A stretch of DNA of 64,000 nt from a virus (taxonomy: Duplodnaviria > Heunggongvirae > Uroviricota > Caudoviricetes), in the IMG/VR virus record IMGVR_UViG_3300045051_000909, positions 1 through 64,000 of that record; one strand, given 5' to 3'. Both the position numbers and the translations under genes were made by a program. Below, piece by piece: positions 8,567 through 61,822 of the stretch (position 1 is its first letter; each line of letters begins with the position of its first letter). The notes under the pieces were generated by a model that saw only the letters and a list, made by a program, of their open reading frames with translations, had not been told where the DNA came from and did no database searches.

Positions 8567-8738
8567 AGGAGTGACTCGTTGGATGATGGTGGTGATGTGG
8601 TTATCGCAGTGGACACTTATACACTCACGTTCGTGCTGCTGCGTCGATAGGCTCGTAACTCGAGCCTACGTCGTTGCAGAGTCTCCACCCTAATACCAGG
8701 GTTTCCGTTGAAGCACTCTGCACCTCCAAAAATCAAAA

Positions 8739-8786: not shown

Positions 8787-9236
8787 CTACGAGCCCGCGG
8801 CCTCCTTGCGCTTGGCCGCCAGCGCGTTCTTGTTGCTGACGTGCTTCGTCAGCTCCGCGCGCAGCTCCGCCTCGCTCTTCTTGACGATCTCGAGCTCCTT
8901 GATGGCGGTCTCGAGCTTGGCCTTGGTGTCGGCCGCCCCGGTGATCATCTCGTTGTACTTCTCCTGGAGGGAGGTCTTGTCCGTCTGGGCCTGGAGGAGG
9001 GCGTGGCCCACCTGCTCGCGGTCCTGGCGGAGCTTCTCGAGGTCGGCGGTCATCTCGAGGACCTGGTTCTCCAGGCGCAGCTTCGAGTTGGTCACCACCT
9101 TGAGCTCGGCCTCCGTCTCCTTCACCTTCGTGGCGGCGCGCCGCCACAGGTAGGTGAGGGTGCCGGTTTCGGCGGCGACGGCGGCGCCGATGGCGATCTT
9201 GCCCCAGTGCGCTGCGAAGAAAGTTGCGATGCCCAT
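8787..9236 (-). CDS. membrane-anchored coiled-coil protein (149 aa); i-spanin/holin-like architecture
   Basis: N-terminal hydrophobic segment FFAAHWGKIAIGAAVAA followed by long heptad-rich helix; own promoter (GGTATAAGC ~9291) and terminator. Confidence 0.5.
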   Translation of the reverse strand: MGIATFFAAHWGKIAIGAAVAAETGTLTYLWRRAATKVKETEAELKVVTNSKLRLENQVLEMTADLEKLRQDREQVGHALLQAQTDKTSLQEKYNEMITGAADTKAKLETAIKELEIVKKSEAELRAELTKHVSNKNALAAKRKEAAGS

Positions 9237-9342
9237 TTGTAGTCTCCTCCAGGAGATGTTTTCCCGCCGGGAAATCCGTTCGGGTACAATTGCTTATACC
9301 TACCCCCAGTGGGCTTTTTAGAACCCCTGGGGGTATGCTAGG

Positions 9343-17908: not shown

Positions 17909-17958
17909 CCGGGTTCACCTCCTTTCCTTGGAGGCTTATACCCTATTGGCTAGGTGTT

Positions 17959-20118: not shown

Positions 20119-20472
20119 TCACACTGCCTTTCTGCGAATGCGGCGCCCGAAGGCCTTCCGCAATTCCTTCTCCATTCTCTTTGTGAGCTCCAGCATGTCG
20201 CTGATGCCGTTTCGAACACGACTACTGGCATCGACCTGGATTACGGTAAGACCATGCGCAGCCGGATCTGAGCCTCTCAGCCCGTCAGCCGATTCCCCGA
20301 GTTCTTTGTTAAAGTTCTCGAGAGACTGCGCAGTCCAGTCACTCCATTCTTGGAGCTCCCGGAGTGTCTTTTGCAGGCGCCACCCCTGCTTGGACAACTC
20401 GCGTTTTCTCATTGGGTTGCGTACCTCCAGTGGATTGGGTTTAGAAGCCACCTGTGGCGCGGGTACATACAC
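20119..20472 (-). CDS. hypothetical protein (start possibly internal MRKREL)
   Basis: chosen over opposite-strand ORF 20012..20509 because all neighbours are minus-strand. Confidence 0.4.
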   Translation of the reverse strand: MYVPAPQVASKPNPLEVRNPMRKRELSKQGWRLQKTLRELQEWSDWTAQSLENFNKELGESADGLRGSDPAAHGLTVIQVDASSRVRNGISDMLELTKRMEKELRKAFGRRIRRKAV

Positions 20473-20483
20473 TTATACCCACG

Positions 20484-21503: not shown

Positions 21504-21686
21504 TCAGCTCTTGAGCTGAGGGATTGAACGTAGGCCTCGGAGGGCTTTCCACTCCGGAGGCGGTTCAATAGGCACCCCGTGGATGAGGACGTAGGGGGCC
21601 CAGATTTTCTCAAGGAACTCGTCCGCTCCGATGCGGAGTCCCAGCTTCTGGAACATGATTACGCCACTCACCGCAGCTGGAACCAT
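21504..21686 (-). CDS. small hypothetical protein (60 aa)
   Basis: AGGAGG RBS; first gene after divergent promoter region. Confidence 0.45.
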   Translation of the reverse strand: MVPAAVSGVIMFQKLGLRIGADEFLEKIWAPYVLIHGVPIEPPPEWKALRGLRSIPQLKS

Positions 21687-21706
21687 GGTGTACCTCCTCG
21701 TTCTAT

Positions 21707-21733
21707 CTTATACCCGCTCTACCACCTATACTT
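21707..21733. promoter_or_regulatory. divergent promoter pair (minus GGGTATAAG; plus TATACT)
   Basis: CTTATACCC and CTATACTTG elements between divergent genes 21686(-) and 21739(+); coordinates +/-2. Confidence 0.4.
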
Positions 21734-21738
21734 GAGGC

Positions 21739-25436: not shown

Positions 25437-25661
25437 CTACTTATACCGGGAATCCTCGATACCCTGATGAAGGGTATCGGCGTGCGCCGGGGTGGACATG
25501 ATCGGCACGCCGCACACGGCCATCGCCTCTACGGTGCGTTCGAGCGCCTGGGTGAGTGTCTTTCCCTGGCTCCGGCAGCCCGGGATTTCCTGTACCGACG
25601 TCACCCAGTAATTGCTGCTGTCATCTCCATCGATCACGATGGTGAGTTGTTTCTTTGCCAT
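25437..25661 (-). CDS. HicB-like (UPF0150) antitoxin-fold protein
   Basis: YWVTSVQEIPGCRSQGKTLTQALERTVEAM matches HicB N-terminal RNase-H-like fold pattern; no HicA partner seen. Confidence 0.55.
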   Translation of the reverse strand: MAKKQLTIVIDGDDSSNYWVTSVQEIPGCRSQGKTLTQALERTVEAMAVCGVPIMSTPAHADTLHQGIEDSRYK

Positions 25662-25725
25662 TCCTTCTCCTGTTGGGGTTGAACAAAAGAAGCGGAGCAG
25701 CGCCGAAGCGCTGCCCCGCCGAGAA

Positions 25726-26709
25726 CTACGGGATGTAGTACCGCAGCGGCCCTGGGTAGGTCCCAGCGGCGCCGAGGTCCACGGCGCTTACCACTTCCGG
25801 CGTAGACCCCACCACAGAGTAGCAACCGGCATTCGCCCGATACGTCAGTAGGGCGCTGGGGGTGTACAGCGTCGCCGCACCACTTGCGCTGTAATAGACG
25901 TGTCCGTTCACCACGGCCATGGTGTACGGCGACTCGAGGTACGCGTTACCGGTGCAATTCGAGGCCGTGAAGTACACTTTCATACCGTTCTCGACTGGTG
26001 CCCCGGAGAGCCAACGCTGAACCAAGACGTTGACACCGCCGTGCCGCTCAACGATGGAAATCGTGTTGGCACCGCTGCCGCTCAAGACCGGCCCAATGAT
26101 GTAGCCGGTGGCGTCCTTGGCGTAGGCCACGATACCCGGGGGGCCTTCGATGCCCTGAATGCCCTGAGCACCCGTATCACCCTTCGGCCCCTGGACACCT
26201 TGGAGACCCTGAATGCCCTGGTCGCCTTTGTCACCCTTCAGGCCCTGAGCACCGGTATCGCCCTTCAAGCCTTGGAGACCCTGAGCACCTTGAGCACCGG
26301 TATCGCCCTTCAGACCCTGCGGACCTTGGGCTCCGGTATCGCCCTTGTCACCTTTGTCGCCCTTCAGGCCTTGAGCACCCTGTGCACCCATGTCGCCCTT
26401 CAGGCCTTGCGGGCCTTGAGTACCCTGGAACCCTTGCGGACCTTGGGCACCCGTATCGCCCTTCGGTCCCTGCGGGCCCTGGGTTCCCTGCGCACCGGTG
26501 TCGCCCTTGTCGCCCTTCAGCCCCTGCGGACCTTGCGGGCCCACGTCGCCCTTATCGCCCTTGTCGCCCTGGACACCAGGATCGCCCTTCAGCCCCTGCG
26601 GGCCTTGGGGACCTTGAGGGCCAACCAGCGCGTCGGGGCTAGTAGTGTTGTTAGGCGCCTCATTGGCGCACGCGGTAAGCACCACCAGCATAGCGATAAG
26701 GGTCTTCAT
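25726..26709 (-). CDS. collagen-like (Gly-X-Y) repeat lipoprotein with C-terminal globular domain
   Basis: MKTLIAMLVVLTAC lipobox; ~55 uninterrupted GXY triplets (GPQGPQGLKGDKGD...); ~130-aa non-repetitive C-terminus. Confidence 0.8.
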   Translation of the reverse strand: MKTLIAMLVVLTACANEAPNNTTSPDALVGPQGPQGPQGLKGDPGVQGDKGDKGDVGPQGPQGLKGDKGDTGAQGTQGPQGPKGDTGAQGPQGFQGTQGPQGLKGDMGAQGAQGLKGDKGDKGDTGAQGPQGLKGDTGAQGAQGLQGLKGDTGAQGLKGDKGDQGIQGLQGVQGPKGDTGAQGIQGIEGPPGIVAYAKDATGYIIGPVLSGSGANTISIVERHGGVNVLVQRWLSGAPVENGMKVYFTASNCTGNAYLESPYTMAVVNGHVYYSASGAATLYTPSALLTYRANAGCYSVVGSTPEVVSAVDLGAAGTYPGPLRYYIP

Positions 26710-26737
26710 CGTGGACTCCTAGTTTTGGGTTTACAAC

Positions 26738-26772
26738 TTATACCCAAAAGAAACCGCCCCTTGAGAGGGCGG
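26738..26772 (-). promoter_or_regulatory. terminator-promoter cassette (hairpin then T-run then GGGTATAAG -10-like element on minus strand)
   Basis: CTTATACCCAAAAGAAA + CCGCCCC..GGGCGG hairpin; coordinates +/-2. Confidence 0.5.
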
Positions 26773-26779
26773 CTTCTAG

Positions 26780-27001
26780 TCAGCGCAGTCCCAAACGCTG
26801 TCGCAGCGTGTGGATTTCGTCGCGGAGTTCGAGGATCTTCTTGGCGGGCTTTCCGTTGAACGGCACGATGCGAGGATACCCAACAGCCGTAACGGCACCG
26901 CGCAAACTAGGGAATGCCACGCTAGCCTGCTTGAGCCCCTCGTTTACTGAGTAAACCACGCCCACCTCTCCATCGACTTCGACGAGTTCCTCAGGCAGCA
27001 T
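26780..27001 (-). CDS. small hypothetical protein (73 aa)
   Basis: ORF overlapping start of MazG-like gene by 11 nt. Confidence 0.4.
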   Translation of the reverse strand: MLPEELVEVDGEVGVVYSVNEGLKQASVAFPSLRGAVTAVGYPRIVPFNGKPAKKILELRDEIHTLRQRLGLR

Positions 27002-27338
27002 CGCCGTTCACCTCCACCACGACATAGCGCTTCGTGAACCCGCCCTTCTCCTCACGTTTGCGGTTTGCGCGGTCACGCAACTCCATCCAGCCCATGTCGT
27101 ACATGTCTGCGATGGCGAGAAGCGCCTCAAAGATATCTGTGAGCTCCTCGCGCGCAGGTTCCAAGGGCTTACCGATCCCGGACGCGTCCACGAACTCCTC
27201 AGTCTCTTCCTGCAACTTGCGAATCGCGTACAGCAGAAACTCCTCGTCGTCCTGCACCTTGCGGTAGACGACCGTCTGCCCCGCATTCACCATGATCGCA
27301 GGGATGTTGTCGCGCACCAGCTTATCCAGCTTCTTCAT
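26991..27338 (-). CDS. MazG/HisE-like nucleoside triphosphate pyrophosphohydrolase
   Basis: MKKLDKLVRDNIP...LQEETEEF...ELTDIFEAL: EExxE metal motifs of all-alpha NTP-PPase family. Confidence 0.7.
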   Translation of the reverse strand: MKKLDKLVRDNIPAIMVNAGQTVVYRKVQDDEEFLLYAIRKLQEETEEFVDASGIGKPLEPAREELTDIFEALLAIADMYDMGWMELRDRANRKREEKGGFTKRYVVVEVNGDAA

Positions 27339-27625
27339 GAGGCTCCCGTGTGAGTGGTGTGTGGATGCCTATTGCAGCACCAGGTAGTCTTGTTGTTCTC
27401 CGAGACGAAGAAGTAGAACGAGTAGCGATCAGGGTCGAAGCCCGCGTCGCGCTGGAGCTCGCGCGCGTCCTTCTCGGTAAGCGTCCTGTGAATCAGGAAG
27501 CTCAGCCGATAGTCCTCTGACCGGTCAATAATCAGCGTCACAGGTTTGTGTGGCTGGTTATGGTGAGCAGCGGGAAATTCTCCCGTAGTACGACGTCTAC
27601 GCTGCGGGTTGAAAGGCCGCGGCAT
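27335..27625 (-). CDS. hypothetical protein (96 aa)
   Basis: ATGA-coupled to MazG-like gene; preceded by cassette. Confidence 0.45.
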   Translation of the reverse strand: MPRPFNPQRRRRTTGEFPAAHHNQPHKPVTLIIDRSEDYRLSFLIHRTLTEKDARELQRDAGFDPDRYSFYFFVSENNKTTWCCNRHPHTTHTGAS

Positions 27626-27650
27626 GCGTAAGCCTCCTTTCGGTTACAGG

Positions 27651-27687
27651 CTTATACCCAAAAGAAAGCCCCCACCGAGTGGGAGCT
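27651..27687 (-). promoter_or_regulatory. terminator-promoter cassette
   Basis: GCTTATACCCAAAAGAAAG + hairpin; RBS AAGGAGG follows on minus strand. Confidence 0.5.
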
Positions 27688-27694
27688 TTCGATG

Positions 27695-28180
27695 TTATTG
27701 GGGAACCAATTCGCGCAACCGAGACGCCGCATCCAATGCCCCGAGACGATTGACGAAGCAGACCGCCGCCGCCGACGGATCCTTAACACGCTTGGCCTGC
27801 TTAGCGTATCCCTCGTACTGGTGTGCCATTACGGTCAGGCGATCCGCTGCCAGGTGAACTACCTCTCCGAACACCTTAGGTATGATCTGCAACTCCGGTG
27901 GTTCGAACACCACCGGCCGCAGATGCATATTCGCCAGCCTAGCTGCGATTCTGGTCTCAAGCCGCTCTGCACGCGCGCGGCATCCTGCGGACAGCAAGTT
28001 CAACTGATCCAGCACGTCACGATTCGACAACTGCGTCAGCCACGCTGAATCGATGATGATCTCCACGGTCTTTTCACGTTGCCAGCATACTGCCAACTGT
28101 GCAGTGAACTTCTGTCCGGCGGGATCGTTCTTGCCCGTCCCACCTCCCTCTAGCAATCTCAAGTTGAGATCTGTGGTCAT
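27695..28180 (-). CDS. hypothetical protein (161 aa)
   Basis: minus-strand ORF between two cassettes. Confidence 0.5.
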   Translation of the reverse strand: MTTDLNLRLLEGGGTGKNDPAGQKFTAQLAVCWQREKTVEIIIDSAWLTQLSNRDVLDQLNLLSAGCRARAERLETRIAARLANMHLRPVVFEPPELQIIPKVFGEVVHLAADRLTVMAHQYEGYAKQAKRVKDPSAAAVCFVNRLGALDAASRLRELVPQ

Positions 28181-28250
28181 GCGCCCCGCTCTTCCTTGTT
28201 TTCAGTTACGTGGTTGGTACTGAAAAACCCGGGTTGGTTCGTGTCCGTTT

Positions 28251-28300
28251 GCTTATACCCAAAAGAAAGCGCCGTGGAGGGGACGATGCCCCCACGGCGC
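28251..28300 (-). promoter_or_regulatory. terminator-promoter cassette
   Basis: GCTTATACCCAAAAGAAAGC + GCGCCGTGG..CCACGGCGC hairpin. Confidence 0.5.
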
Positions 28301-28314
28301 CTTCGCGGTTCGTT

Positions 28315-28437
28315 TTACGTCGAACCGCGCCTGAACGTGTAGCCTTCGTCGACGATGTACTTCTTGTACAGCATCCGACCGGCATCGTAGATGCCCATGC
28401 CGACGGCAACCGCAAACGCGGTTTTCCAGAAGCCCAT
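28315..28437 (-). CDS. small membrane protein (40 aa)
   Basis: MGFWKTAFAVAVGMGIY single TM; own cassette up- and downstream; coordinates +/-1. Confidence 0.35.
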   Translation of the reverse strand: MGFWKTAFAVAVGMGIYDAGRMLYKKYIVDEGYTFRRGST

Positions 28438-28478
28438 CGAAGGCCTCCTTGTGAGGGTTGAAGGTTTGGGGTTTGCCA

Positions 28479-28640
28479 CTAGCTGGGCAGCGGCGCTTCC
28501 GGCTCGACGTGGACCGCCACGCGGCGCGGCTTCGAGGCCATCTTGTCCAGCGCCTCAGCACCGGCCATCACGCCCACGATCCCCAGGCCGCCCAGGAAGG
28601 TGCCGACGGTGACGCAGATGATCGTCTTGAACATACCCAT
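28479..28640 (-). CDS. small membrane protein (53 aa)
   Basis: MGMFKTIICVTVGTFLGGLGIVGVMAG single TM; own promoter cassette; coordinates +/-1. Confidence 0.35.
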   Translation of the reverse strand: MGMFKTIICVTVGTFLGGLGIVGVMAGAEALDKMASKPRRVAVHVEPEAPLPS

Positions 28641-28697
28641 GTGTTTTCCTCCAACCCCGGCGGATACGGGGCAAGTTGGTTTTCCGCTTTACTAAAC

Positions 28698-28740
28698 GCT
28701 TATACCCAAAAAAACGGGGGATCCTTGGAAGGACCCCCCG
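28698..28740 (-). promoter_or_regulatory. terminator-promoter cassette
   Basis: GCTTATACCCAAAAAAAC + GGGGGATCC..GGACCCCC hairpin; TTTAGTAAA leader. Confidence 0.5.
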
Positions 28741-28809
28741 CTGGTCAGCGGAACAGCAACTCGTGCACCAGCTCCAACAATTTCAACTGGGCGCGCTGTA
28801 CGAGGCGCT

Positions 28810-29157
28810 TCATGCGCTTGCTCCTCCCGGCGGTGGCAATTGCGTGAGCTGCGGATGGCGCGGCATGGCGTTGCTGTGGAACTTGTTGCGCACCTCCGGG
28901 CCGCAGGTCGCGCACTGCCCGTCGCAGCCGAGCAGCCGGATCTGGAGGGACTTCGCCTCCGTCATGACCCGGTTCTTCGCTGCCACGCTGTTGGTCATGC
29001 TCGTCGCCTCGTCGATGACCGCATCGATGAGCGAGGCCATCTCGAGACTCGTGGCCTTCTTGTCGTTCACCAGCATGTCCGCGATGACCGTGAGCATGAG
29101 GATCTCTTCGGCCAGGAACAGCTGCTTCAGCATCTTCATCGCGTCGTTGTCGGTCAT
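28810..29157 (-). CDS. hypothetical protein (115 aa)
   Basis: AAAGGA RBS; chosen over overlapping alternative frames. Confidence 0.45.
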   Translation of the reverse strand: MTDNDAMKMLKQLFLAEEILMLTVIADMLVNDKKATSLEMASLIDAVIDEATSMTNSVAAKNRVMTEAKSLQIRLLGCDGQCATCGPEVRNKFHSNAMPRHPQLTQLPPPGGASA

Positions 29158-29166
29158 GTCGTCCTT

Positions 29167-29559
29167 TCACATCAGGTTGGGGGTAGCATGCGCTTCGGCT
29201 TCCGCATTGACCCACAGAGCCACCATCTTCCGATGCGTCTCCTCGGGGTCCGCGTCATCCAGCTTTGCGATTGCAACCGCGACATCGCGGTTGTGGCAGA
29301 ACGCCCGGAGGTACGCCTCGAGCATCTCTGCGCGAGCCTTGCTGAAGCGCTGCGTCGGGATGACCCAGGGCAGACCGAGCTGGCGCAGGTACGCCGGCCG
29401 CAGGCCCGCCAGGGTCATCCAGCCCAACATCTCGGCATAGCGCAGCAGCGCGCCGAGGTACCGCTTGTTGAGCAGCGCGAGGGCGATCCCCGCCATCCGC
29501 GTGTAGAGGGCATCCCCGAGCTGCGTGGCCAGAACGACGCGCTTGTTGTTGTGGTTCAT
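29167..29559 (-). CDS. hypothetical protein (130 aa)
   Basis: first gene after cassette at ~29600. Confidence 0.5.
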   Translation of the reverse strand: MNHNNKRVVLATQLGDALYTRMAGIALALLNKRYLGALLRYAEMLGWMTLAGLRPAYLRQLGLPWVIPTQRFSKARAEMLEAYLRAFCHNRDVAVAIAKLDDADPEETHRKMVALWVNAEAEAHATPNLM

Positions 29560-29593
29560 TTTTGGAGCTCCGAGGTTTTCGGGTTTACTAGAA

Positions 29594-29633
29594 GCTCATA
29601 CCCAAAAAGAAGCGCCGGCTTCGAATAGCCGGC
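29594..29633 (-). promoter_or_regulatory. terminator-promoter cassette (variant GGGTATGAGC)
   Basis: GGGTTTACTAGAAGCTCATACCCAAAAAGAAGC + GCCGGCT..AGCCGGC hairpin. Confidence 0.5.
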
Positions 29634-29640
29634 ACTCCTT

Positions 29641-29822
29641 CTAGCGGGTAACGAGGCGGAGCGCGTTACCCCGAGTGAAGGTACGGGGCGTCGGTGGTGG
29701 CGGGGGTCGCTTTGGGCGGTCATTGCGGACGTAGCCCTTGCGATTAGCCTCACGCGCCTTAGCCTTACGGTGGCCACGCCATTCGTAGACGCGCCACTCG
29801 TAATCGGGCAGGTAGATCACGC
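29641..29822 (-). CDS. small basic protein (start at GTG ~29822)
   Basis: GGAGG RBS 7 nt upstream of GTG; Arg/Lys/Pro-rich. Confidence 0.35.
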
Positions 29823-30068
29823 GCGAACCTCCGAGGACAGCATCGGAACCCAGGTGCACGCCTGCATCATCCAATCATCCGCCGCGCGCTGCCACGCCAG
29901 GCCCATGTTCAGCGAGTAGTTGGCGTCCAGCAATCGCCCCCACTTCTCGTAAGCCGCCGCAGCCTCGAGCGAGCGGTCAGAGTAGGAGGCGCAACGGAAC
30001 GCGGCTTCAATCGCGTCCGCGAAGCTTTCCAGGGCGTACTGCTCGGACAAGTAGTAGTCGATACTCAT
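29817..30068 (-). CDS. hypothetical protein (83 aa)
   Basis: first gene after cassette at ~30110. Confidence 0.45.
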   Translation of the reverse strand: MSIDYYLSEQYALESFADAIEAAFRCASYSDRSLEAAAAYEKWGRLLDANYSLNMGLAWQRAADDWMMQACTWVPMLSSEVRA

Positions 30069-30106
30069 GGAGGTCGGCCTCCCGCAAAGGTTTGGGTTTA
30101 CTAGAA

Positions 30107-30150
30107 GCTAATACCAAAAAAAGCAGCGCCCCCAGGATTGGGAGCGCTGC
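30107..30150 (-). promoter_or_regulatory. terminator-promoter cassette (variant TGGTATTAGC)
   Basis: GGGTTTACTAGAAGCTAATACCAAAAAAAGC + GCAGCGC..GCGCTGC hairpin. Confidence 0.5.
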
Positions 30151-30181
30151 CACATTCGCGGTGAGGATTGGCCGCAAATGT

Positions 30182-30685
30182 TCATGCCTTCGCGTGTGCC
30201 TCGGTGTGGCAGTGGTCGCAGTTCCCGTCGCAGTCCTTGTCCTCGTCCTCGCCGCCCGGCTGCATCTTCTTGAGCAGCTCCACGAACGGGTTCTTCTCCC
30301 GGGGCAGCGTCAGGTACAGCTTCTCGAGCGCGTTGCAGGCGTCGACCGGATCCGGCAAGTTCGCGAACGTCTCGGCCTGCTTGCCGATCTCCTTGGCTTC
30401 CTCGCCCGTCTTGAGGCCCTTGACCACCGCCGCCGTGAGAGCCTCGGTGATGTTCAGGTGCATCAGCGAGGACAGCGTCTTGCCCAGCGCGGGCTCGAGC
30501 GCGGCCATCGCCTCTTCGTACTTGTACTCCTTGGCCAGCGGGATCGCGATCTCGATGGCGCTGTCGTAGAGCTTCTGCGCGTTGTCGGGTTCGATGATCT
30601 TGCGCTCGATGCCTTCGCTGAGCATCTGCTGGAGGAACTCCACGCTGAGCTGCGTCTGGATTCCAGCGAGTCGGGTGATGCGCAT
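30182..30685 (-). CDS. hypothetical protein with C-terminal CDGNCDHCHTEAH metal-binding tail (start at MRITRL)
   Basis: TAATG coupling with upstream gene. Confidence 0.5.
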   Translation of the reverse strand: MRITRLAGIQTQLSVEFLQQMLSEGIERKIIEPDNAQKLYDSAIEIAIPLAKEYKYEEAMAALEPALGKTLSSLMHLNITEALTAAVVKGLKTGEEAKEIGKQAETFANLPDPVDACNALEKLYLTLPREKNPFVELLKKMQPGGEDEDKDCDGNCDHCHTEAHAKA

Positions 30686-31107
30686 TACGACCTCCTCTTC
30701 TTCTTGGTGGTAGCAGCGGGTTTGGTATTGCTCTTGGTGGTGGTGAACAACTGAACGTCGCCCTTCTCGAAGGGCTGGAAGTTGCCCGTGCGGCACTGAA
30801 TCACCTTCTTCCAGCCATTCATCTTCATGTTGGCGATGAGACTTTCCGCAGTAGGCATTTTCTTCTCGACGTCCTTGAGCGTCATCACCTGGCCGTCGAT
30901 GAAGTACATCTTGTCGCTGTACATGGGCTGCCCATGCAGGGTCTCGCGTGCGATCTTCCGCTCGTTGCGCTTCCAGAATCGGAACGCGAAGGCCTCGCGA
31001 GGCGCTTTCTTCAACGCCACCTCGGGGTCGGGCTTGGCGATGGCCTTGTCCTCTCGTTCAGAGAAGAAGGCCCCGGGGATCAGGTACTCCACGTAGTGCT
31101 TGATCAT
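30685..31107 (-). CDS. hypothetical protein (140 aa)
   Basis: minus-strand ORF coupled both sides. Confidence 0.5.
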   Translation of the reverse strand: MIKHYVEYLIPGAFFSEREDKAIAKPDPEVALKKAPREAFAFRFWKRNERKIARETLHGQPMYSDKMYFIDGQVMTLKDVEKKMPTAESLIANMKMNGWKKVIQCRTGNFQPFEKGDVQLFTTTKSNTKPAATTKKKRRS

Positions 31108-31110
31108 CTA

Positions 31111-31857
31111 TTAGATCTCGTAGTTGGGTACTCCCAGGCACCGTTCGATGATCCGGAAGTACTCGATGAACTTCTCCTTCGACCAGGCGTGCACGCCCAG
31201 GCCGCCCGTCGTGTCGTAGAACGTCACGTCGTCCTTCTTTGTCACTGCGTCGAGCTCCGGGCACTCGAACGGCGGTGAGCACGACACCTCGATGACATCG
31301 ACCCGTTTGCGTGGGCCCACGACCACCTTGGCCCCGTGCAGTGTGAACTTGTACCACGGCTCGAGCTCAGAGCCGCTGTAGCGATTCTTGATGGGCGTGT
31401 ACTCCTCGATCCCCAGCTCAGCCAGCAGCTCGGACCAGTACTTCTTGTGCCGCGTGAGGATCGGATCCTCAGGCGCTTGTACGTGCTTCGTGTTCTCTGC
31501 GTTGTACGGGCCCTCCCACTCATCGTCCGCGCGCTTGATGTACCCCACCACACCCAGGGGCAGGGCGGGCGGCGTCGGCGTGATCGGACGCGACATGTCC
31601 TTGTTCGCGTGCTTGTCCCAGGTCAGGCGCCACTGAGCCATCATCGGGCCGTTGACCCAGCGCTCGACGGCCAGCGTAGCGTCCTTCATGTGGAAGAGCG
31701 CCAGCGGGCCGCAGCCGTATCCGGTGAGGATCCAGACGGGCTGGCCGCAGCGACCACACACGAACGACTCGTGGCTGAACGACGCGCTCAGCGTCCCGCC
31801 ACCGAATCTCCACTTCTTTGCACCACAGATGCACGGCATCACATCTTCGGGCAGCAT
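31111..31857 (-). CDS. Cys-rich hypothetical protein (start at MLPEDV)
   Basis: GGAGG RBS 4 nt before ATG; GGGTATAAGCGGG promoter upstream. Confidence 0.5.
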   Translation of the reverse strand: MLPEDVMPCICGAKKWRFGGGTLSASFSHESFVCGRCGQPVWILTGYGCGPLALFHMKDATLAVERWVNGPMMAQWRLTWDKHANKDMSRPITPTPPALPLGVVGYIKRADDEWEGPYNAENTKHVQAPEDPILTRHKKYWSELLAELGIEEYTPIKNRYSGSELEPWYKFTLHGAKVVVGPRKRVDVIEVSCSPPFECPELDAVTKKDDVTFYDTTGGLGVHAWSKEKFIEYFRIIERCLGVPNYEI

Positions 31858-31890
31858 GCCACCTCCACAAAGGTTTGGGTTCACTGCCCG

Positions 31891-31935
31891 CTTATACCCG
31901 AAAAAAGGCTGTGCTCCCGGAGTGGGAGCAAAGCC
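31891..31935 (-). promoter_or_regulatory. terminator-promoter cassette
   Basis: GCTTATACCCGAAAAAAGGC + GCTCCC..GGGAGC hairpin. Confidence 0.5.
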
Positions 31936-32904: not shown

Positions 32905-33127
32905 TGTCGACGTCCTTTCTTTATTTCGTTGTGAGCTAATAGTTCCAGCTTCCTCTATAGACTTATACCCTACCCCGCCATACAGGCACGGATGGCTTTA
33001 ACGGCCGTTAGGGCGCTTTTGGCCCCCGGGCCCTGGCCTAGTGTTGGTTGGGGTAGCTCCGCGCGTCCTGGCCTCAATACGGCCTTTATAGCGGGGTTTC
33101 TAAATAGATCGGGGATACGATGAAACG

Positions 33128-33285
33128 TCGTTTCACCGACTCGCTGTTTCGCCGAGTCTTTCGATCAGTCAAAGCTTGTGTGTATGCTGTACGGTGTAAC
33201 GTGGTGTTTAGACTCGCCGTTTCGCCGACTCGCTGATTCCCCGAAACCTTAGAATACGCAACAGTGGTTGTTTCGCTGATTCGTA
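33128..33285. repeat. iteron-like direct repeats (core GTTTCGCCGACTCGCTG, 4-5 copies)
   Basis: GTTTCACCGACTCGCTGTTTCGCCGAGTC ... GACTCGCCGTTTCGCCGACTCGCTGATTC ... GTTTCGCTGATTCG. Confidence 0.55.
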
Positions 33286-33460
33286 TACTGTGACAGCCAC
33301 CGCCTCTAAGACAGCTACGTATACTGATCCTAAAGGCTACACGTACCCCTGTATCTCTATACATACGATAACGTTACATATATACGCATATGCCCCTTAT
33401 ATTCCCCGCGCCCCCGGGCACATCATTACGCGCGCGCGGCTACACGCTTCTAAAACTGCG

Positions 33461-33474
33461 TGTCAAATTTGACA
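33461..33474. promoter_or_regulatory. perfect 14-bp palindrome TGTCAAATTTGACA (operator candidate), with TGTCAAA half-site repeated 20 nt downstream
   Basis: exact inverted repeat in non-coding region. Confidence 0.5.
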
Positions 33475-33843
33475 CACCCATTTGGACAAAATGTCAAACA
33501 TACGTATGTACGAGACTGAGGGGTATGTGGAAAAGGTACTTTAGATTGCTCGCGCGCGCATAGATCCTAGGTTTCCCGGTAACGCATCTGTACACATGAG
33601 CATGTGCTGAGATCCCTAAGAACAATAACGCATTGGGTTGAGGGGGGCAGGTCGCCCTCATCAGATCAGACTCGTTTGAATAGCCGCTTAGTGACCCAAT
33701 AAAACCTGGGGTGGCTCATTCACTAACCACCGGTTCCGTGCGTAAATTCGACGGGGCTAAGAATACTGATCTCCGCAAATAACGTGTTCCATACTCTATT
33801 CACAACGGCGGCGGGGAGGCGGCGCAACCCCGTAGTCATTGCT

Positions 33844-33871
33844 TGACGTTACGGCGTAAACGGGGTATGTC
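33844..33871 (+). promoter_or_regulatory. sigma70-like promoter for rightward arm (-35 TTGACG, 16-nt spacer, -10 TATGTC), overlapped by GTTACGGCGTAAA inverted repeat
   Basis: positioned ~30 nt upstream of AGGAG RBS and ATG at 33899. Confidence 0.45.
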
Positions 33872-33898
33872 CTGGTCAACTTCTCGATAGGAGCAGAT

Positions 33899-35830
33899 AT
33901 GCTAAGTACCTGGCTAAAGGACCTGCATCGCCTCGCTACCGCCACCAACGCCCCCTTCCCCGTCTACGACACCACGCGCGCATGTATCAGCGAGCACGGA
34001 CTGGCGTACTACGTCCTCCCCAGGAAGCGGCGTCTCGAGGACTCCCTGTGGTTCGACGGAACGTTGTACGCCCAGCAGCGCCGGCTCGCCGCTGTCAACG
34101 CAGGGCTCGAGCCACCGCACTGGAACAGCGAGGATGTGCTGCTGCTCATCCATTGGCCGCATCTGCTATGGACGGCGAGGCCACACAGCCGCTCTCCGAT
34201 GAAGCCGATGGCTCATCGTCTCCTGCGGGCGCTGAAGCCGTTGATCCTGCAATACGACGCCGCCCTGGTGACGATGCTCGAGCGTTACGAAACTGACTGG
34301 GCCAAGAACGTCAAGGAGCACCAGGGAGATCTGGGCTACTTCGGGCAGCGAGACGAGGCGGACGGGGAGATCTTTACTGCGCATTTGCAAAGCCTCCTCG
34401 CCAACAAGAGCTTCAAGCAGCACCTCGCAGCCACCATGCGGCAGAGCACACGCATCGTCACTGCCGATCATGTGCAGCACACCTTGGGTCGCTGCCCCAG
34501 CGGAGCGACGCATCGTAAAGGCCAGGATTGCGGCGCCTGCAAGGACTTGCGCTGGGTGCGGGCCAACACCAGCGTCCTCTGGCCCGGCAAGCTCAACGAG
34601 GTCAAGAGCGGCATGGCCGAGCTCCAATTCGATAAGCCCGACCTCTGGCCGGAGGGGATTACTAATCCCTGGCTGCTGGAGCTGCGCCATTGGGTTTCTC
34701 TGTGCAGTGAGCAGGAAGGCGTGGCGCGCACTGAATACCCGGGATACGGCGAGGCGTTGCTCGTGGATTTCGGCAAGCTCATCGAAACGGCGAAGCGCTA
34801 CGACCGCGAAATGCCGTTGACGAAGTTCTTCGATGTCACCGCCCCCGCCGATTTCTGGACGCCTGGCTGCCGTGCCCGCGCCGCTTTCCACGAGGTTACC
34901 AAGGGCGAGTTCCTGGCGCGTCGCCCCAAGCCACTCAAGGATCTCGTGGAGTCGGTGGGGTGGCGCTGGGAAGAGTCCTTGGAGACGCCGTATGAATTGA
35001 TCTCCCTGTTCGCCATCGCGGGCAAGTTCGCTGGCGTCAAGAAGACCGCCAAGTCCCTTTCTTTGGCTTGGCGCAGCCGCAAGATCACGGAGCCCCGCAA
35101 GCTTCCCCCGAAGCTGGTGACGCTGACCTACGCCGACGCCGGAGGACGGCAGTTTTATATCCAGGCGGCGAGGCGGCGCTTCATCGACATCAAAGGCACA
35201 CTGGCTGAAGGCCAGCGTGCCTTTGCCTGCTTTACCACGCCGTTCCCCGTGGGCGGTGAGGAAACGAAGTACAAGTATCGCAAGCGCAAGGCCTTCAAGA
35301 TCAACGGTGTCCTGTTCTGGACGGTGCGCGGTCTCAACATGCTGGCCAGTGTGCGTTGGCAGCACAACATCAAGAATCCTGAGAATGGTGAGGTAATGCA
35401 CAAGGAAGGCGAGCCCAAATACCCCTGGGCCGAGGCTTTCCGAGACTGGGCGGATATCGAGGAGTCGAAGCTGACGTTGGAGCGCTTCCGTGAGTTGCGC
35501 TATGAGGCCAAGTACGGAGAGCGGCTTTTGCGGTATCAGAAGGGTCGAGCCAAACACATTGGCCCGTTCACTAATCAGGAGGACAACACGCTGCGAGAGT
35601 TCTTTCTTTTGCGTGCGCCAGGTTCGCACCGCATCGCCAAGGAGGAGTGGAATCAGATCCTGCCGCTGCTTCCTGGGCGTTCGCAGAAGTCGATCATTCG
35701 CCGGCTCGAGGAGCTAGGCAAACAATACGCACGGGAGCACGGCTGGGCCGCTTACTGCGACTCGGGGCTATGCGTGCGGCGTTCGCACCTGCGCAAACAA
35801 CGTTGGATCAAGGAAGGGATTGCGCTATGA
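33899..35830 (+). CDS. large early protein (643 aa) with C-terminal Myb/SANT-like DNA-binding domain
   Basis: AGGAG RBS; C-terminus FTNQEDNTLREFF...WNQILPLLPGRSQKSIIRRLEEL has Myb-repeat W/F spacing; mirror ORF 34166..35629(-) rejected. Confidence 0.65.
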   Translation: MLSTWLKDLHRLATATNAPFPVYDTTRACISEHGLAYYVLPRKRRLEDSLWFDGTLYAQQRRLAAVNAGLEPPHWNSEDVLLLIHWPHLLWTARPHSRSPMKPMAHRLLRALKPLILQYDAALVTMLERYETDWAKNVKEHQGDLGYFGQRDEADGEIFTAHLQSLLANKSFKQHLAATMRQSTRIVTADHVQHTLGRCPSGATHRKGQDCGACKDLRWVRANTSVLWPGKLNEVKSGMAELQFDKPDLWPEGITNPWLLELRHWVSLCSEQEGVARTEYPGYGEALLVDFGKLIETAKRYDREMPLTKFFDVTAPADFWTPGCRARAAFHEVTKGEFLARRPKPLKDLVESVGWRWEESLETPYELISLFAIAGKFAGVKKTAKSLSLAWRSRKITEPRKLPPKLVTLTYADAGGRQFYIQAARRRFIDIKGTLAEGQRAFACFTTPFPVGGEETKYKYRKRKAFKINGVLFWTVRGLNMLASVRWQHNIKNPENGEVMHKEGEPKYPWAEAFRDWADIEESKLTLERFRELRYEAKYGERLLRYQKGRAKHIGPFTNQEDNTLREFFLLRAPGSHRIAKEEWNQILPLLPGRSQKSIIRRLEELGKQYAREHGWAAYCDSGLCVRRSHLRKQRWIKEGIAL

Positions 35831-36546
35831 GTCGCAAGGAGGCTAAGCGGCTAAGAGCCTCGCGGCAGTATAACGAAAAGGCGGCGCAGGGTCTTTGTCG
35901 AAATGAGGGATGTCACAATCCTGTGACACCAGGAAAGGTACGTTGTGCGCCGTGTCTCGAACACTACAATAAGCTTCGACAAGAGCGGCGAGTACGCAAC
36001 CGCGAAATTAGTTTGTGCATCGATTGTGGTAATCCCTCAAGCGGATATTCGAGATGTGAAGTATGTCGTTCGGGCGCCCGGCGTATCGATAATAAGCTGT
36101 ACCGCATCAGCTGTGAAGCAGGTACTTGTGTAACTTGTGGCCGCCCCGCGGCCCCAAATCTTCGAAGTTGTTTGGTTCATTGGTTTAGCGGTATTGCCAA
36201 GTCTCAGCAGTATCGCGGAGCTGATCTCGGTTCGCTTTCAGGAACGGAAATTCGTGCACTGTTTGAATTACAGCAAGGGCGTTGTGCATACACGGGGACT
36301 CCACTGCGTATCGGAGGCCGTGCGTGGAACAGTGCTTCACTGGACCACAAACTCCCAATCAGTCAAGGAGGCACGAACAGCATCGACAACTTGCACTGGG
36401 TCGCGTGGTGTATAAACGGTCTCAAAGGCACGTTATCAGACAGCGAATTCCAAGAGACGTTTGATGCACCCACACTTTCGCGATTTATAATCGTCTTAGC
36501 TAAGAAAGAAAAGCATGACCAAATCCCAGGAAACAGCGCTGCGTAA
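35827..36546 (+). CDS. HNH endonuclease with N-terminal tandem CxxC zinc-finger repeats
   Basis: RCAYTG...DHKLPISQGGTNSIDNLHWVAWCIN = HNH core; four Cx2C..Cx2C pairs upstream; ATGA-coupled. Confidence 0.75.
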   Translation: MSRKEAKRLRASRQYNEKAAQGLCRNEGCHNPVTPGKVRCAPCLEHYNKLRQERRVRNREISLCIDCGNPSSGYSRCEVCRSGARRIDNKLYRISCEAGTCVTCGRPAAPNLRSCLVHWFSGIAKSQQYRGADLGSLSGTEIRALFELQQGRCAYTGTPLRIGGRAWNSASLDHKLPISQGGTNSIDNLHWVAWCINGLKGTLSDSEFQETFDAPTLSRFIIVLAKKEKHDQIPGNSAA

Positions 36547-39590: not shown

Positions 39591-39887
39591 ATGCCGCCTG
39601 ACGCCATCGTAAAGATTCTTACCAGCAACGGCGTAAAGACCGCGCTGATGGCCGATCCACGTAAAGATGACTTCGTCTGGCACGGCGGGACGTTGCTGCG
39701 CGTAGTCCAAATCAACGAAATTGCATTCTTGGCCTGCTGCGTTTTAGCGGATTCGCCAGTGCCAGAAGCTACTTGGTTTGCTTTTGAGAGTCTGACCATC
39801 GCCACCTGCAAGCACTGCCACCAAGCCCACACAGATCACGCTGATAATGAGAAATGCCTATTCGAACCAACGAATTGGGCCATTTGA
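39591..39887 (+). CDS. zinc-knuckle family paralog 1 (CKHCHQAHTDHADNEKCLFEPTNW)
   Basis: C-terminal C-x2-C-x6-H-x5-C-LF-xPT motif. Confidence 0.6.
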   Translation: MPPDAIVKILTSNGVKTALMADPRKDDFVWHGGTLLRVVQINEIAFLACCVLADSPVPEATWFAFESLTIATCKHCHQAHTDHADNEKCLFEPTNWAI

Positions 39888-39905
39888 CAAAGCAAGTTGT
39901 TTCAG

Positions 39906-39950
39906 AGGGCGCCCTGTATCCGGGGGCGCCTTCTTTTTGGTATAAGGAGG
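39906..39950 (+). promoter_or_regulatory. terminator-promoter cassette (hairpin, T-run, TGGTATAAG, AGGAGG)
   Basis: GGGCGCCCTGTATCCGGGGGCGCC TTCTTTTTGGTATAAGGAGG. Confidence 0.55.
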
Positions 39951-41955: not shown

Positions 41956-41964
41956 TGCCGCAGA

Positions 41965-41998
41965 GAAGGCGCCCTCCCACAGGGCGCTTTCTTTTTGG
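41965..41998 (+). terminator. terminator, left copy of identical 34-bp repeat GAAGGCGCCCTCCCACAGGGCGCTTTCTTTTTGG
   Basis: GGCGCCCT..AGGGCGC hairpin + T-run. Confidence 0.6.
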
Positions 41999-42064
41999 CC
42001 TACAGATGAACGCTTCCTTGGTATGAGGATGAGCAGCAACGATCACGTTTACTCGAAAGGACCC

Positions 42065-42589
42065 ATGACTGACATTCACTGGAAACACCGGATGGACCGC
42101 CGTGTCTACATCGATCTGAATGATGAGATGAATATCCGTATCGGTAGTAGCGGCAATGTCCCTGAGCGCACACGCGTCATACAATCCACGCACTATCGCG
42201 AAGTCTTCAATCTTTTCTCGATCCCGGGAAACGAGGACGTGGAAAAGCTGTTGCAGTATTGCTTGTATCGCCACGCTATCGATAAGGATTGGTTCAGCGC
42301 CAAATCAGACAAGGACCCTGAGGTCTGGTACTTGATTGAAGAGCTGCGTCCAGCGGAACAGCGAGGCAATGTCGTCAACACCGTCGAGCGGCTGTGTCTT
42401 GAGTTCAACGTCCCGTCGTGGCCAGTCGTACTTCGCCCCAGCAAGAATATGCTGGCGGGAATATTGCGACAGCGGAAGTGGCAGAATGCGCGGGAATCCG
42501 TAGCGGCGGCGCGCCGGTACTGGGAGCCGATCCTTCAACGGCGGGACCGTCGTGAAATACCTTTGGCAGATATTGCTGCGGGGATTTGA
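42065..42589 (+). CDS. GIY-YIG-like (T5orf172/MUG113-type) domain protein, putative homing endonuclease
   Basis: N-terminal VYIDLNDEMNIRIGSSGNVPERTR resembles GIY..(K/R)IG.T..R core; GAAAGGA RBS; flanked by identical terminator repeats. Confidence 0.45.
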   Translation: MTDIHWKHRMDRRVYIDLNDEMNIRIGSSGNVPERTRVIQSTHYREVFNLFSIPGNEDVEKLLQYCLYRHAIDKDWFSAKSDKDPEVWYLIEELRPAEQRGNVVNTVERLCLEFNVPSWPVVLRPSKNMLAGILRQRKWQNARESVAAARRYWEPILQRRDRREIPLADIAAGI

Positions 42590-42591
42590 AG

Positions 42592-42631
42592 GAAGGCGCC
42601 CTCCCACAGGGCGCTTTCTTTTTGGTATGAG
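42592..42631 (+). promoter_or_regulatory. terminator-promoter cassette, right copy of 34-bp repeat (then TGGTATGAG)
   Basis: sequence identical to 41965-41998. Confidence 0.6.
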
Positions 42632-42660: not shown

Positions 42661-42954
42661 GTGAAGTTCGAAGTAGGGGAGCGCGTGTTTTGGAAGGCCG
42701 CATACGAGACTCAGCTCATGAGCCCTCGCTCAATGGATGGCCCGTACACCGTAACGACACCTCCGCCCGGTACGCCGCGCTGGATGCTTGAGTGCATGGT
42801 CTGGCTCGAGGAAGACTTCTATGGGAATCGGCGTACCATCGGACGCTACGCCAACCACTTCATCAGCATCTGCATCAACTGCTACAAGCCCAAGGCCGAC
42901 CACGCTGACAATGGGAAATGTCTCTTCGAACCAACCTACTGGAGGTCACACTAG
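42661..42954 (+). CDS. zinc-knuckle family paralog 5 (CINCYKPKADHADNGKCLFEPTYW)
   Basis: GTG start after TGGAG RBS; family motif. Confidence 0.6.
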   Translation: MKFEVGERVFWKAAYETQLMSPRSMDGPYTVTTPPPGTPRWMLECMVWLEEDFYGNRRTIGRYANHFISICINCYKPKADHADNGKCLFEPTYWRSH

Positions 42955-47114: not shown

Positions 47115-47329
47115 AACCCTGGACAATCGAAACGCGGGACACCTGTCGCTTTTGCAGAATGCCCAAGGCCGAACACGCGGCCGCTGCCAAGTGCCTATTC
47201 GAGCCTACGCAATACGACCCGACAACGGTGTTGGTCATCGACGCAGAGAACGGTATCTCGTTGGATATCTCCGAACCCGCCGTACGGCAGTGGGTTGAGG
47301 GGATCGCCAGCGGGATACGCGGAGTCTGA
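47111..47329 (+). CDS. zinc-knuckle family paralog 10 with N-terminal motif (CRFCRMPKAEHAAAAKCLFEPTQY)
   Basis: ATGA coupling. Confidence 0.55.
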   Translation: MKPWTIETRDTCRFCRMPKAEHAAAAKCLFEPTQYDPTTVLVIDAENGISLDISEPAVRQWVEGIASGIRGV

Positions 47330-47335
47330 AAGGAA

Positions 47336-47370
47336 GCGGGCCAGCACCGGCCGCTTCTTTTTGGTATCAG
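47336..47370 (+). promoter_or_regulatory. terminator-promoter cassette (then TGGTATCAG)
   Basis: GCGGGCC..GGCCGC hairpin TTCTTTTTGGTATCAG. Confidence 0.5.
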
Positions 47371-51733: not shown

Positions 51734-51742
51734 CCGTGAGAG

Positions 51743-51779
51743 AGCGACGCCCGTAAGGGTCGCTTTCTTTTGGTATCAG
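51743..51779 (+). promoter_or_regulatory. terminator-promoter cassette (then TGGTATCAG)
   Basis: AGCGACGCCC..GGGTCGCT hairpin TTCTTTTGGTATCAG. Confidence 0.55.
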
Positions 51780-53529: not shown

Positions 53530-53536
53530 ACTGGGA

Positions 53537-53571
53537 AGCGACCTTCTAGGGGTCGCTTTCTTTGGTATCAG
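53537..53571 (+). promoter_or_regulatory. terminator-promoter cassette (then TGGTATCAG)
   Basis: AGCGACC..GGTCGCT hairpin TTCTTTGGTATCAG. Confidence 0.55.
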
Positions 53572-58094: not shown

Positions 58095-58139
58095 GATAGA
58101 CTCCGGGGCTAAGGTTTCGGCTTACTAAAGGCTTATACC

Positions 58140-58457
58140 ATGTCGAATGATCGTCGTATGGAGCAGCTGCTCGGCCGTCAGATGGCGGCTATTGTGACCT
58201 CGATCAATGAAAAGCGGTACCCTGAACTATGCCGTCACTGTCATCAGTATCAAGACGAGCACGCCGAGGGTGGCAAATGTCTGTTTGAGCCTTCGACGTT
58301 TGACCCCTACCCCAATGCAGAAGCGCTGCAAACCGCAAACACCGCGTCGGAGCGCCTGAGAAAACTAAATGAACTCATTGAAGAAGTGGAAGCACCTTCG
58401 CCGCCGACCCCCATACATTGGCCCACTACAAAAGGGTCAACGGGTCGTGGTACGTGA
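58140..58457 (+). CDS. zinc-knuckle family paralog 21 (motif near N-terminus: CRHCHQYQDEHAEGGKCLFEPSTF)
   Basis: family motif followed by 55-aa tail. Confidence 0.5.
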   Translation: MSNDRRMEQLLGRQMAAIVTSINEKRYPELCRHCHQYQDEHAEGGKCLFEPSTFDPYPNAEALQTANTASERLRKLNELIEEVEAPSPPTPIHWPTTKGSTGRGT

Positions 58458-60144: not shown

Positions 60145-60181
60145 CCAATCCTCCAAGCGTTAAGGTTTTCGGTCTCAAGTA

Positions 60182-60203
60182 CTTATACCATTCCGGGTAT
60201 AAG
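60182..60203. promoter_or_regulatory. back-to-back divergent -10 elements forming inverted repeat CTTATACCattccGGGTATAAG
   Basis: serves 59812..60144(-) and 60250..60759(+). Confidence 0.5.
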
Positions 60204-60249
60204 CGTTTGTTTCGGAGATTTACTCCGTAAACACCGATAGGAGAAGATC

Positions 60250-61796: not shown

Positions 61797-61815
61797 GCTT
61801 ATACCCGCTATACTG
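61797..61815. promoter_or_regulatory. divergent promoter pair (minus GGGTATAAGC; plus GCTATACTG)
   Basis: between 61760(-) and 61823(+). Confidence 0.45.
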
Positions 61816-61822
61816 AGAGGAA

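Follow-up and report, generated by a model that had tools for sequence, protein, structure and literature searches.

The locus considered here raises the question of why a phage genome would carry the same short intergenic block in front of one small gene unit after another, and which RNA polymerase (RNAP) would read it. It lies in a 64,000-nt stretch of DNA, hereafter the window, comprising positions 1 to 64,000 of the IMG/VR record IMGVR_UViG_3300045051_000909 (Duplodnaviria; Heunggongvirae; Uroviricota; Caudoviricetes), where seven near-identical cassettes occupy the minus strand between 26.7 and 32 kb. We are highly confident that these cassettes combine a transcription terminator, a promoter and a leader. 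Here it is further proposed, with belief and doubt in equal parts, that GGTATAAG-N5/6-GTA is a previously undescribed conserved early promoter of the widespread, mostly uncultured clade grouped with Salmonella phage Arash, which would inject a beta-beta'-fused multisubunit RNAP, possibly with a sigma-70-like factor, and so begin its programme without need of host sigma. In the window this promoter is fused to terminators as cassettes that resemble the promoter-early stem-loops (PeSLs) of T4-type phages; these cassettes would isolate accessory genes from one another and might also reshuffle them.

Read on the minus strand, the seven cassettes have a common order, consisting of a hairpin with a stem of 11-16 bp, a T-rich run of 7-9 nt, the motif (G/T)GGTAT(A/G/T)AG(C/T), a leader, GGAG(G) and ATG. 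Their hairpins have folding free energies (dG) of -18.8 to -30.6 kcal/mol, and six of the seven were terminator-like in a separate terminator scan; together with five fused cassettes of the plus arm, the 12 span -17.8 to -30.6 kcal/mol. The terminator set is limited to hairpins that were clean after re-folding, a permissive first scan having over-called. The hairpins begin 3-30 nt past the stop codon of the preceding gene, and the tail is typically TTTCTTTT, with one C within the T-run. The stem sequences differ among cassettes, which points to selection on structure and not on sequence. An independent gene call assigned 3, 2, 2, 2, 1, 3 and 1 genes to the units between successive cassettes. 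This agrees with the preliminary description of the locus, which had read the blocks as terminator, promoter, 5' untranslated region (5'UTR) and Shine-Dalgarno (SD) cassettes bounding units of 1-3 genes, a reading that the sequence fits.

Motif counts and repeat content of the window support the cassettes at the seven positions given for them in that description. With at most one mismatch, GGGTATAAGC is found at 15 sites against 1.92 expected, 13 of them on the minus strand, and none of 100 dinucleotide shuffles reached this count. The 8-mer core GGTATAAG has 16 copies in the window (14 on the minus strand), for a Markov-1 expectation of 0.47 and a simulated maximum of 3; the canonical -10 variants GGTATAAT, GGTATAAA and GGTATAAC have 0 copies each. 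An unbiased repeat search independently recovered the cassettes as families D7, D10, D13 and D17, the first of which is 41 nt long with 63-78% identity between copies. Some details require correction. Two copies, cassettes 5 and 6, do share a long identity, which is 22 nt with one mismatch (GGGTTTACTAGAAGCT.ATACC, 29,582-603 vs 30,095-116) and not the 25 nt first given. The related copies reported at 9292, 58131, 60181/60195 (a divergent pair) and 61797 are good, the one placed at 32920 is really at 32961-70, and those at 8617 (GTGTATAAGT) and 8690 (GGTATTAG) are weak matches. To these are added here the sites at 17934, 20471, 21706 and 25439, as well as a plus-arm set at 39939, 42624, 47363, 51772 and 53564.

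Aligned on GGTAT, the sites split into two classes. Class A includes 17 full sites, in the minus arm from 9.3 to 33 kb and at 58-62 kb, with the core (G)GGTATAAG(C). All 17 face a start codon 24-70 nt downstream, and about 12 of the 17 continue as nnTT(n)GTAAACCCgAAAACC, the long leader that had been ascribed to each cassette and is thus present at many sites and not at all of them. Class B includes the plus-arm set and a nearby site at 42020, with the core GGTAT[C/G/A]AG, always preceded by a hairpin and TTTCTTTTT and with no leader in common. A terminator lies upstream of 7 of the 17 class A promoters and is missing from the other 10, and the window also has terminators with no promoter, for example at 25,691, 16,979 and 21,448. 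Because stand-alone promoters and promoter-less terminators both occur, the two are separable modules that are often fused. In the fused form the terminator stem ends at about -24, and the U-tract of one unit is the upstream flank of the next promoter.

The window has a GC content of 59% and encodes a contractile-tail module, a GH108 lysin, a pilin-like N-methyl protein and many small open reading frames (ORFs). Five IMG/VR contigs of 168-190 kb have a syntenic sheath gene at 58-61% identity to that of the window, and the nearest isolate is Salmonella phage Arash (OQ632216; 180.8 kb), with a sheath 27-30% identical and with the major capsid protein, tube and other structural genes shared. The intergenic site that follows the baseplate genes (window position 9292) is syntenic, and there GGTATAAG is invariant in the window and in 5/5 of these relatives, in diverged flanks. 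In the closest relative, contig L229, the homologues of genes 21504-21686 and 20119-20412 are likewise preceded by conserved sites, in which only the 8-mer is kept. The Arash genome contains 31 copies of GGTATAAG, compared with 2.7 expected, 30 of them on one strand, where almost all closely precede minus-strand genes, namely those for small ORFs, replication and nucleotide metabolism, and tRNA clusters. Their consensus is t-GGTATAAG-tAaagTgtAaa, and 23 of 30 sites carry GTA at an offset of 4 or 6 from the 8-mer, where chance would give about 6%. Furthermore, GGTATAAG-N5-GTA was found in additional metagenomic contigs with a related RNAP gene, at 41-62% GC, and in each case the motif and the RNAP gene are on opposite strands. 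A close-packed series of fused copies that share a long leader is peculiar to the window phage; the promoters of L229 and Arash mostly stand alone.

Other searches had no such return. Comparison of the window DNA with 50,697 phage records gave zero matches, exact-pattern scans of IMG/VR with TTTTGGGTATAAGC and with a longer pattern gave single chance matches or none, locus searches with two single window proteins found nothing, and a literature search for the 8-mer GGTATAAG returned primer matches only.

With TATAAG taken as a -10-like hexamer, G is invariant at -14, -13 and -7, and +1 coincides with the first base of the conserved GTA. A conserved -35 box was sought in the 17 aligned class A sites and no information content was present there; in the fused cassettes the variable hairpin arms fill this position. 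Several other promoter readings were rejected. Sigma-54, extracytoplasmic function (ECF) sigma and Bacteroidetes-type promoters do not fit the sequence in spacing or consensus, an N4-type hairpin promoter does not agree with hairpins of variable sequence and length that are missing from 10 of the 17 promoters, and the register with TTGGGT as -35 and TAGTAA as -10 would leave a spacer of just 9 nt.

From this geometry the following mechanism is proposed. The GC-rich hairpin and U-run would end the upstream transcript, and the last Ts of the run would abut a -35-less promoter with the core GGTATAAG, contributing G at -14 and -13 and then TATAAG with its G at -7. The predicted start site is the G of GTA(AACC), a conserved stretch, and lies about 6 nt past the 10-mer; the resulting 5'UTR would be 19-65 nt long, A/C-rich and mostly unstructured, with a GGAGG ribosome-binding site. 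The outcome would be a row of early units of 1-3 genes, each separately started and stopped. The promoter would be lineage-specific, not a host sigma-70 promoter, and common to myoviruses of ~170-195 kb (the Arash group and metagenomic relatives) that encode a multisubunit RNAP; its reader would be this phage RNAP, or a phage sigma-like factor on an RNAP core.

The polymerase genes of the lineage are consistent with such a reader. According to Pfam, Arash gp206 is a fusion of beta with the N-terminal part of beta' and gp216 is the C-terminal part of beta'. Arash also has two sigma-70-family proteins, gp10 (11,892-12,596), with regions 2 and 3 and alignable to SigA regions 2-3, and gp196 (120,656-121,693), with region 2. 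No region 4 was detected in gp10; a homologue with 63% identity has a precomputed r4_2 match, and a divergent region 4 is possible. In Arash virions, gp206 is the most abundant protein by spectral count, and gp216 and gp10 are present; the same paper is silent on promoters and is the one source of virion proteomics for this lineage (PMC10585845). Four of the close relatives encode homologues of gp206 (~37%) and gp216 (~33%; overall range 32-37%) at the same place relative to the capsid genes, and from the fifth, L153, a beta'-C gene alone was retrieved, 58% identical to the homologue of contig L138. RNAP-encoding jumbo phages have a conserved early-promoter motif of ~10 nt near -10, upstream of early operons, which is read by the virion RNAP (PMC7598289). 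A sigma-like ORF about 3.5 kb after the RNAP beta' gene was seen only in a distant clade (L202, L208 and L228; ~28% identity).

Several points weigh against assigning the promoter to phage machinery. The motif resembles an extended -10 sigma-70 promoter, with TGGTATAAG at some sites and 5/6 matches between TATAAG and TATAAT. Pfam scans of all ORFs, together with tblastn and hidden Markov model (HMM) searches with gp10 and gp196, gave no RNAP or sigma gene in the 64-kb window, and no sigma homologue was found in the examined parts of the close relatives (tblastn, HMM). The window phage would have its RNAP by extension from those relatives, and the plus-arm GGTAT[C/G]AG variants are candidate promoters assigned by analogy. 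Ordinary extended -10 early promoters of the host RNAP (TGnTATAAt-like and -35-independent), placed after intrinsic terminators as in PeSL cassettes, could account for the hexamer, the invariant G(-14) and the missing polymerase genes with no phage polymerase involved. They would also fit the TG at -15/-14, which is present in 5/5 plus-arm fused sites and three class A sites, and the architecture shared with PeSLs, which use sigma-70-like promoters. As in extended -10 promoters, the -35 is dispensable and G stands at -14; however, the combination TG(-15/-14), A(-11) and T(-7) that defines them is incomplete: A(-11) is present, T(-15) occurs in 3/17 class A sites, and -7 always carries G. The T(-7) that is missing here is, by established knowledge restated in PMC7598289, one of two bases that flip out into pockets of sigma-2. 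The G at -7 was found in 17/17 class A sites of the window and 30/30 Arash sites, GGTATAAT occurs in Arash twice and in the window not once, and the motif is kept with its +1 GTA at 41-62% GC, including in a Salmonella phage, which would be unexpected if each phage had adapted to the sigma factor of its own host. Host-read promoters are thus considered unlikely. Because G(-7) is invariant, GGTATAAT is absent and the motif is conserved across hosts and GC contents, phage machinery rather than host sigma-70 appears to set the specificity, and we find it rather probable that phage machinery reads the promoter.

The leader has to be divided between the promoter and the transcript. It had been suggested to be a recognition element for a phage factor, and this stands for its first bases, GTA/GTAAA, which are kept even in Arash and look like part of a phage-specific promoter because they are conserved 5-6 nt past the motif, at the expected start site. 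Since GGTATAAG-GTA recurs in distant phages, these bases belong to a promoter much older than the window phage. The suggestion does not extend to the remainder, CCCAAAACCTTTG, which is peculiar to the window phage. Leader-like A/C-rich sequence was also found before an SD with no promoter, as AAACCCCAAACC at the 28,479/28,436 junction and as TCAACCCCAACAGGAG after the terminator at 25,691 (minus strand). Because it is also present without the promoter, CCCAAAACCTTTG more likely serves translation as an unstructured A/C-rich leader, or else is left over from duplication of the cassettes. On the minus strand, 28,436-28,500 and 25,660-25,720 resemble half cassettes, having a leader and no GGTATAAG.

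The same leader sequences bear on the idea that the conserved block acts as RNA within read-through transcripts, as a processing site, a 3'-end stabilising hairpin or a translational-repressor site, and not as a DNA promoter. A role in mRNA stabilisation and the control of translation would be in keeping with a hairpin and an A/C-rich leader beside the SD, and the leader-like AAACCCCAAACC stands at an internal gene junction that lacks GGTATAAG. However, the hairpin is absent at 10/17 GGTATAAG sites, the divergent pair 60181/60195 and the copy at the head of the arm (32961) have no upstream transcript to process, no Rfam match was obtained, and the spacing of GTA fits the geometry from -10 to +1. 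An RNA-level function in place of a promoter is very improbable on this evidence. The search of the window for Rfam families also covered tRNAs, and neither were found.

A further possibility is that the cassettes are mainly recombination modules that spread by duplication in the PeSL style and through which accessory genes are inserted, deleted and shuffled, with the leader reflecting common descent or homogenisation and not function; this is compatible with either promoter model, and we hold it tentatively, as possible and short of an even call. The similarity between copies exceeds what a promoter would need (the 41-nt family D7). An identical 31-nt terminator, GGCGCCCTCCCACAGGGCGCTTTCTTTTTGG, is present at ~41,960-41,996 and ~42,592-42,625 on both sides of a single 223-aa gene, and GGTATGAG follows both copies, with a 21-nt insert between the T-run and the motif in the first. 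Gene content next to the promoters differs from that of L229, where the R2K, kinase and vWA genes are absent, and degraded half cassettes are seen at 25,691 and 28,479. Additionally, the cassette-bounded 248-aa gene of unit 7 (31,111-31,857, minus strand) has a 57%-identical homologue at 10,001-10,780 of L145, an unrelated phage contig that carries RecA, AcrVA2-like and Dam genes and no cassettes, which suggests horizontal exchange of an accessory gene. Against recent copying of whole units, the seven minus-arm hairpins differ in sequence. From the 31-nt terminator repeat, the remnants and the differences in gene content, PeSL-like recombination has perhaps taken place between window cassettes.

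The cassettes and the remaining promoters of the window are listed in the table.

Predicted fused cassettes, stand-alone promoters and paired promoters of the window, with the sequence elements and genes that belong to each
Feature	Position	Strand	Elements and context
Cassette 1	26707..26777	-	hairpin 26749-26777 (12 bp, dG -20.3), T-run, GGGTATAAGT 26736-45, leader TGTAAACCCAAAAC, AGGAG, ATG 26709
Cassette 2	27623..27690	-	hairpin 27664-27690 (dG -18.8), TTTCTTTT, GGGTATAAGC 27650-59, leader CTGTAACCGAAAGGAGG, ATG 27625; 3-gene unit
Cassette 3	28178..28304	-	hairpin 28265-28304 (16 bp, dG -30.6), TTTCTTTT, GGGTATAAGC 28251-60, 70-nt leader, ATG 28180; 161-aa gene
Cassette 4	28638..28742	-	hairpin 28713-28742 (dG -23.5), TTTTTTT, GGGTATAAGC 28698-707, leader GTTTAGTAAAGCGGAAAACC..., GGAGG, ATG 28640; two tiny membrane ORFs
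Cassette 5	29557..29642	-	hairpin 29605-29642 (dG -26.2), T-run, GGGTATGAGC 29594-603, leader TTCTAGTAAACCCGAAAACC, ATG 29559; 2-gene unit
Cassette 6	30066..30151	-	hairpin 30123-30150 (dG -24.0), TTTTTTT, TGGTATTAGC 30107-16, leader TTCTAGTAAACCCAAACCTTTG, GGGAGG, ATG 30068; 2-gene unit
Cassette 7	31855..31935	-	hairpin 31907-31935 (dG -19.3), TTTTTT, GGGTATAAGC 31890-99, leader GGGCAGTGAACCCAAACCTTTG, GGAGG, ATG 31857; 3-gene unit, first gene 248 aa
Plus-arm fused cassette	39904..39946	+	hairpin 39904-34 (dG -23.0), TTTT, GGTATAAG
Plus-arm fused cassette	42588..42631	+	hairpin (dG -22.7), T-run, GGTATGAG
Plus-arm fused cassette	47328..47370	+	hairpin, T-run, GGTATCAG; repeat family D17
Plus-arm fused cassette	51738..51779	+	hairpin, T-run, GGTATCAG; repeat family D17
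Plus-arm fused cassette	53533..53571	+	hairpin, T-run, GGTATCAG
Stand-alone promoter	9292..9301	-	AGGTATAAGC; upstream of gene 8787-9236
Stand-alone promoter	17934..17943	-	GGGTATAAGC; precedes AAA_33 kinase-like gene, ATG 17908
Stand-alone promoter	20471..20480	-	GGGTATAAGT; syntenic with L229 7091
Stand-alone promoter	21706..21715	-	GGGTATAAGA; syntenic with L229 6129
Promoter	25439..25448	-	CGGTATAAGT; inside last codons (R-Y-K-stop) of upstream gene
Promoter	32961..32970	-	GGGTATAAGT; first of minus arm, edge of 930-bp non-coding gap
Stand-alone promoter	58131..58140	-	TGGTATAAGC; leader CTTTAGTAAGCCGAAACC; repeat family D7
Divergent back-to-back pair	60181..60204	both	TGGTATAAGT minus 60181-90; GGGTATAAGC plus 60195-204
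Stand-alone promoter	61797..61806	-	GGGTATAAGC; leader ATTTGTAACCCGCAACC

The genes of the region between 26.7 and 32 kb gave zero matches in a Pfam scan. The gene of cassette 1 (25,726-26,709, minus strand) encodes a protein of 327 aa with a lipoprotein-like N-terminus and a long collagen-like GxY repeat (9-nt periodicity, family D1). Between the divergent minus and plus arms there is a non-coding, GC-poorer gap of ~930 bp (32,971-33,898), which contains a perfect 16-nt palindrome, GTGTCAAATTTGACAC (~33,460), and several stretches rich in GTATAC/TATAC; this gap may be an origin or a regulatory region. A second motif, (A/C)AGTATAG (CTATACT on the plus strand), was observed just upstream of GGTAT sites at divergent junctions, at ~900 in L138, ~750 in L139 and ~870 in L141 (minus) and at 21,720-21,735 and 61,807-61,816 in the window, 8-15 nt before plus-strand start codons, and could represent a separate class of promoter that serves the opposite strand. 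Bidirectional intrinsic terminators, with an A-tract, a hairpin and a T-tract, are found at the convergent junctions 7,709/7,733, 57,856/57,876, 59,782/59,805 and 60,928/60,949.

Elsewhere in the window, at least 20 small paralogous plus-strand ORFs between 39,800 and 62,800 (e.g., 39797-39878, 42861-42942 and 62135-62182) have the common C-terminal pattern CxxC...(D/E)HA(D)NGKCL(F/Y)EPT(x)(F/W). They have a zinc-ribbon-like look and no Pfam match, and one copy is present in L229 (~500-610). Two probable homing-type nuclease genes interrupt conserved blocks, these being an Endonuclease VII gene just before the sheath gene (2,097-2,615, plus strand; Pfam match) and a Cys-rich ORF with low GC at third codon positions (35,829-36,515, plus strand), which is HNH-like by sequence reading.

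The cassette architecture alone is useful mainly for annotating the transcription units of the window phage. The promoter adds value to this, as a motif with G(-7) and a conserved start that is common to phages with ~30% identical structural proteins and 41-62% GC and that co-occurs with an unusual RNAP. If phage machinery reads the motif, it would define the early regulon of a whole uncultured clade and would provide a compact, possibly host-independent promoter-terminator part; one promoter kept in phages of hosts that range from Salmonella to high-GC bacteria would amount to an expression signal independent of the host. It also offers a testable promoter for the polymerase and sigma-like proteins of Arash, which is cultured.

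Among known systems, the closest in layout are the PeSL cassettes of T4-type phages (Arbiol et al. 2010, PMC2839356; Comeau et al. 2014, PMC4122927). As in PeSLs, the 12 fused cassettes have a stem-loop just upstream of an early promoter, followed by an SD and a start codon, and copies recur in variable regions among small ORFs with no known function; degraded half-elements and direct repeats flanking single genes are also shared. The preliminary description had seen unusual insulation for a phage in units with their own terminator and promoter, a view that does not survive this comparison, stem-loop/early-promoter/SD cassettes being known across T4-type phages. In contrast to the window cassettes, which lack a -35 and whose hexamer ends in an invariant G, PeSLs have sigma-70-like -35 and -10 boxes with a 17-nt spacer. 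Also, in the window the T-run meets the promoter at 0-1 nt, and the window phage is not T4-type, its structural module being Arash-like and its relatives encoding a multisubunit RNAP. The terminator half is conventional, with a GC-rich stem of 11-16 bp, a loop of 3-8 nt and a T-rich tail of 7-9 nt at the 3' end of a gene, several with an upstream A-tract pairing with the tail; these predicted intrinsic terminators differ in that the tail TTTCTTTT usually has one C and is shared with the next promoter.

The promoter half is comparable to the early promoters of jumbo-phage virion RNAPs (phiKZ, AR9; PMC7598289), which also have a conserved motif of ~10 nt near -10 and no -35, upstream of presumed early operons, in a lineage that encodes a beta/beta'-like RNAP, virion-borne in Arash. 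The differences are that the genomes here are of ~170-195 kb and outside the phiKZ group, that the polymerase has fused beta-beta'N and beta'C where jumbo phages have 4-5 split subunits, that Arash has sigma-70-family proteins whereas the specificity subunits of phiKZ and AR9 have no sigma similarity, and that GGTATAAG-N5/6-GTA is common across hosts and GC contents whereas jumbo motifs vary from phage to phage. T4 late promoters (TATAAATA, read by the truncated sigma gp55) similarly show that a single element in the -10 region suffices with no -35; however, GGTATAAG is distinct in sequence and serves early-type small genes, not late genes. The feature is thus probably PeSL-like punctuation built on a lineage-specific -35-less promoter, in which the architecture is of a known kind and the promoter is the part of greater interest.

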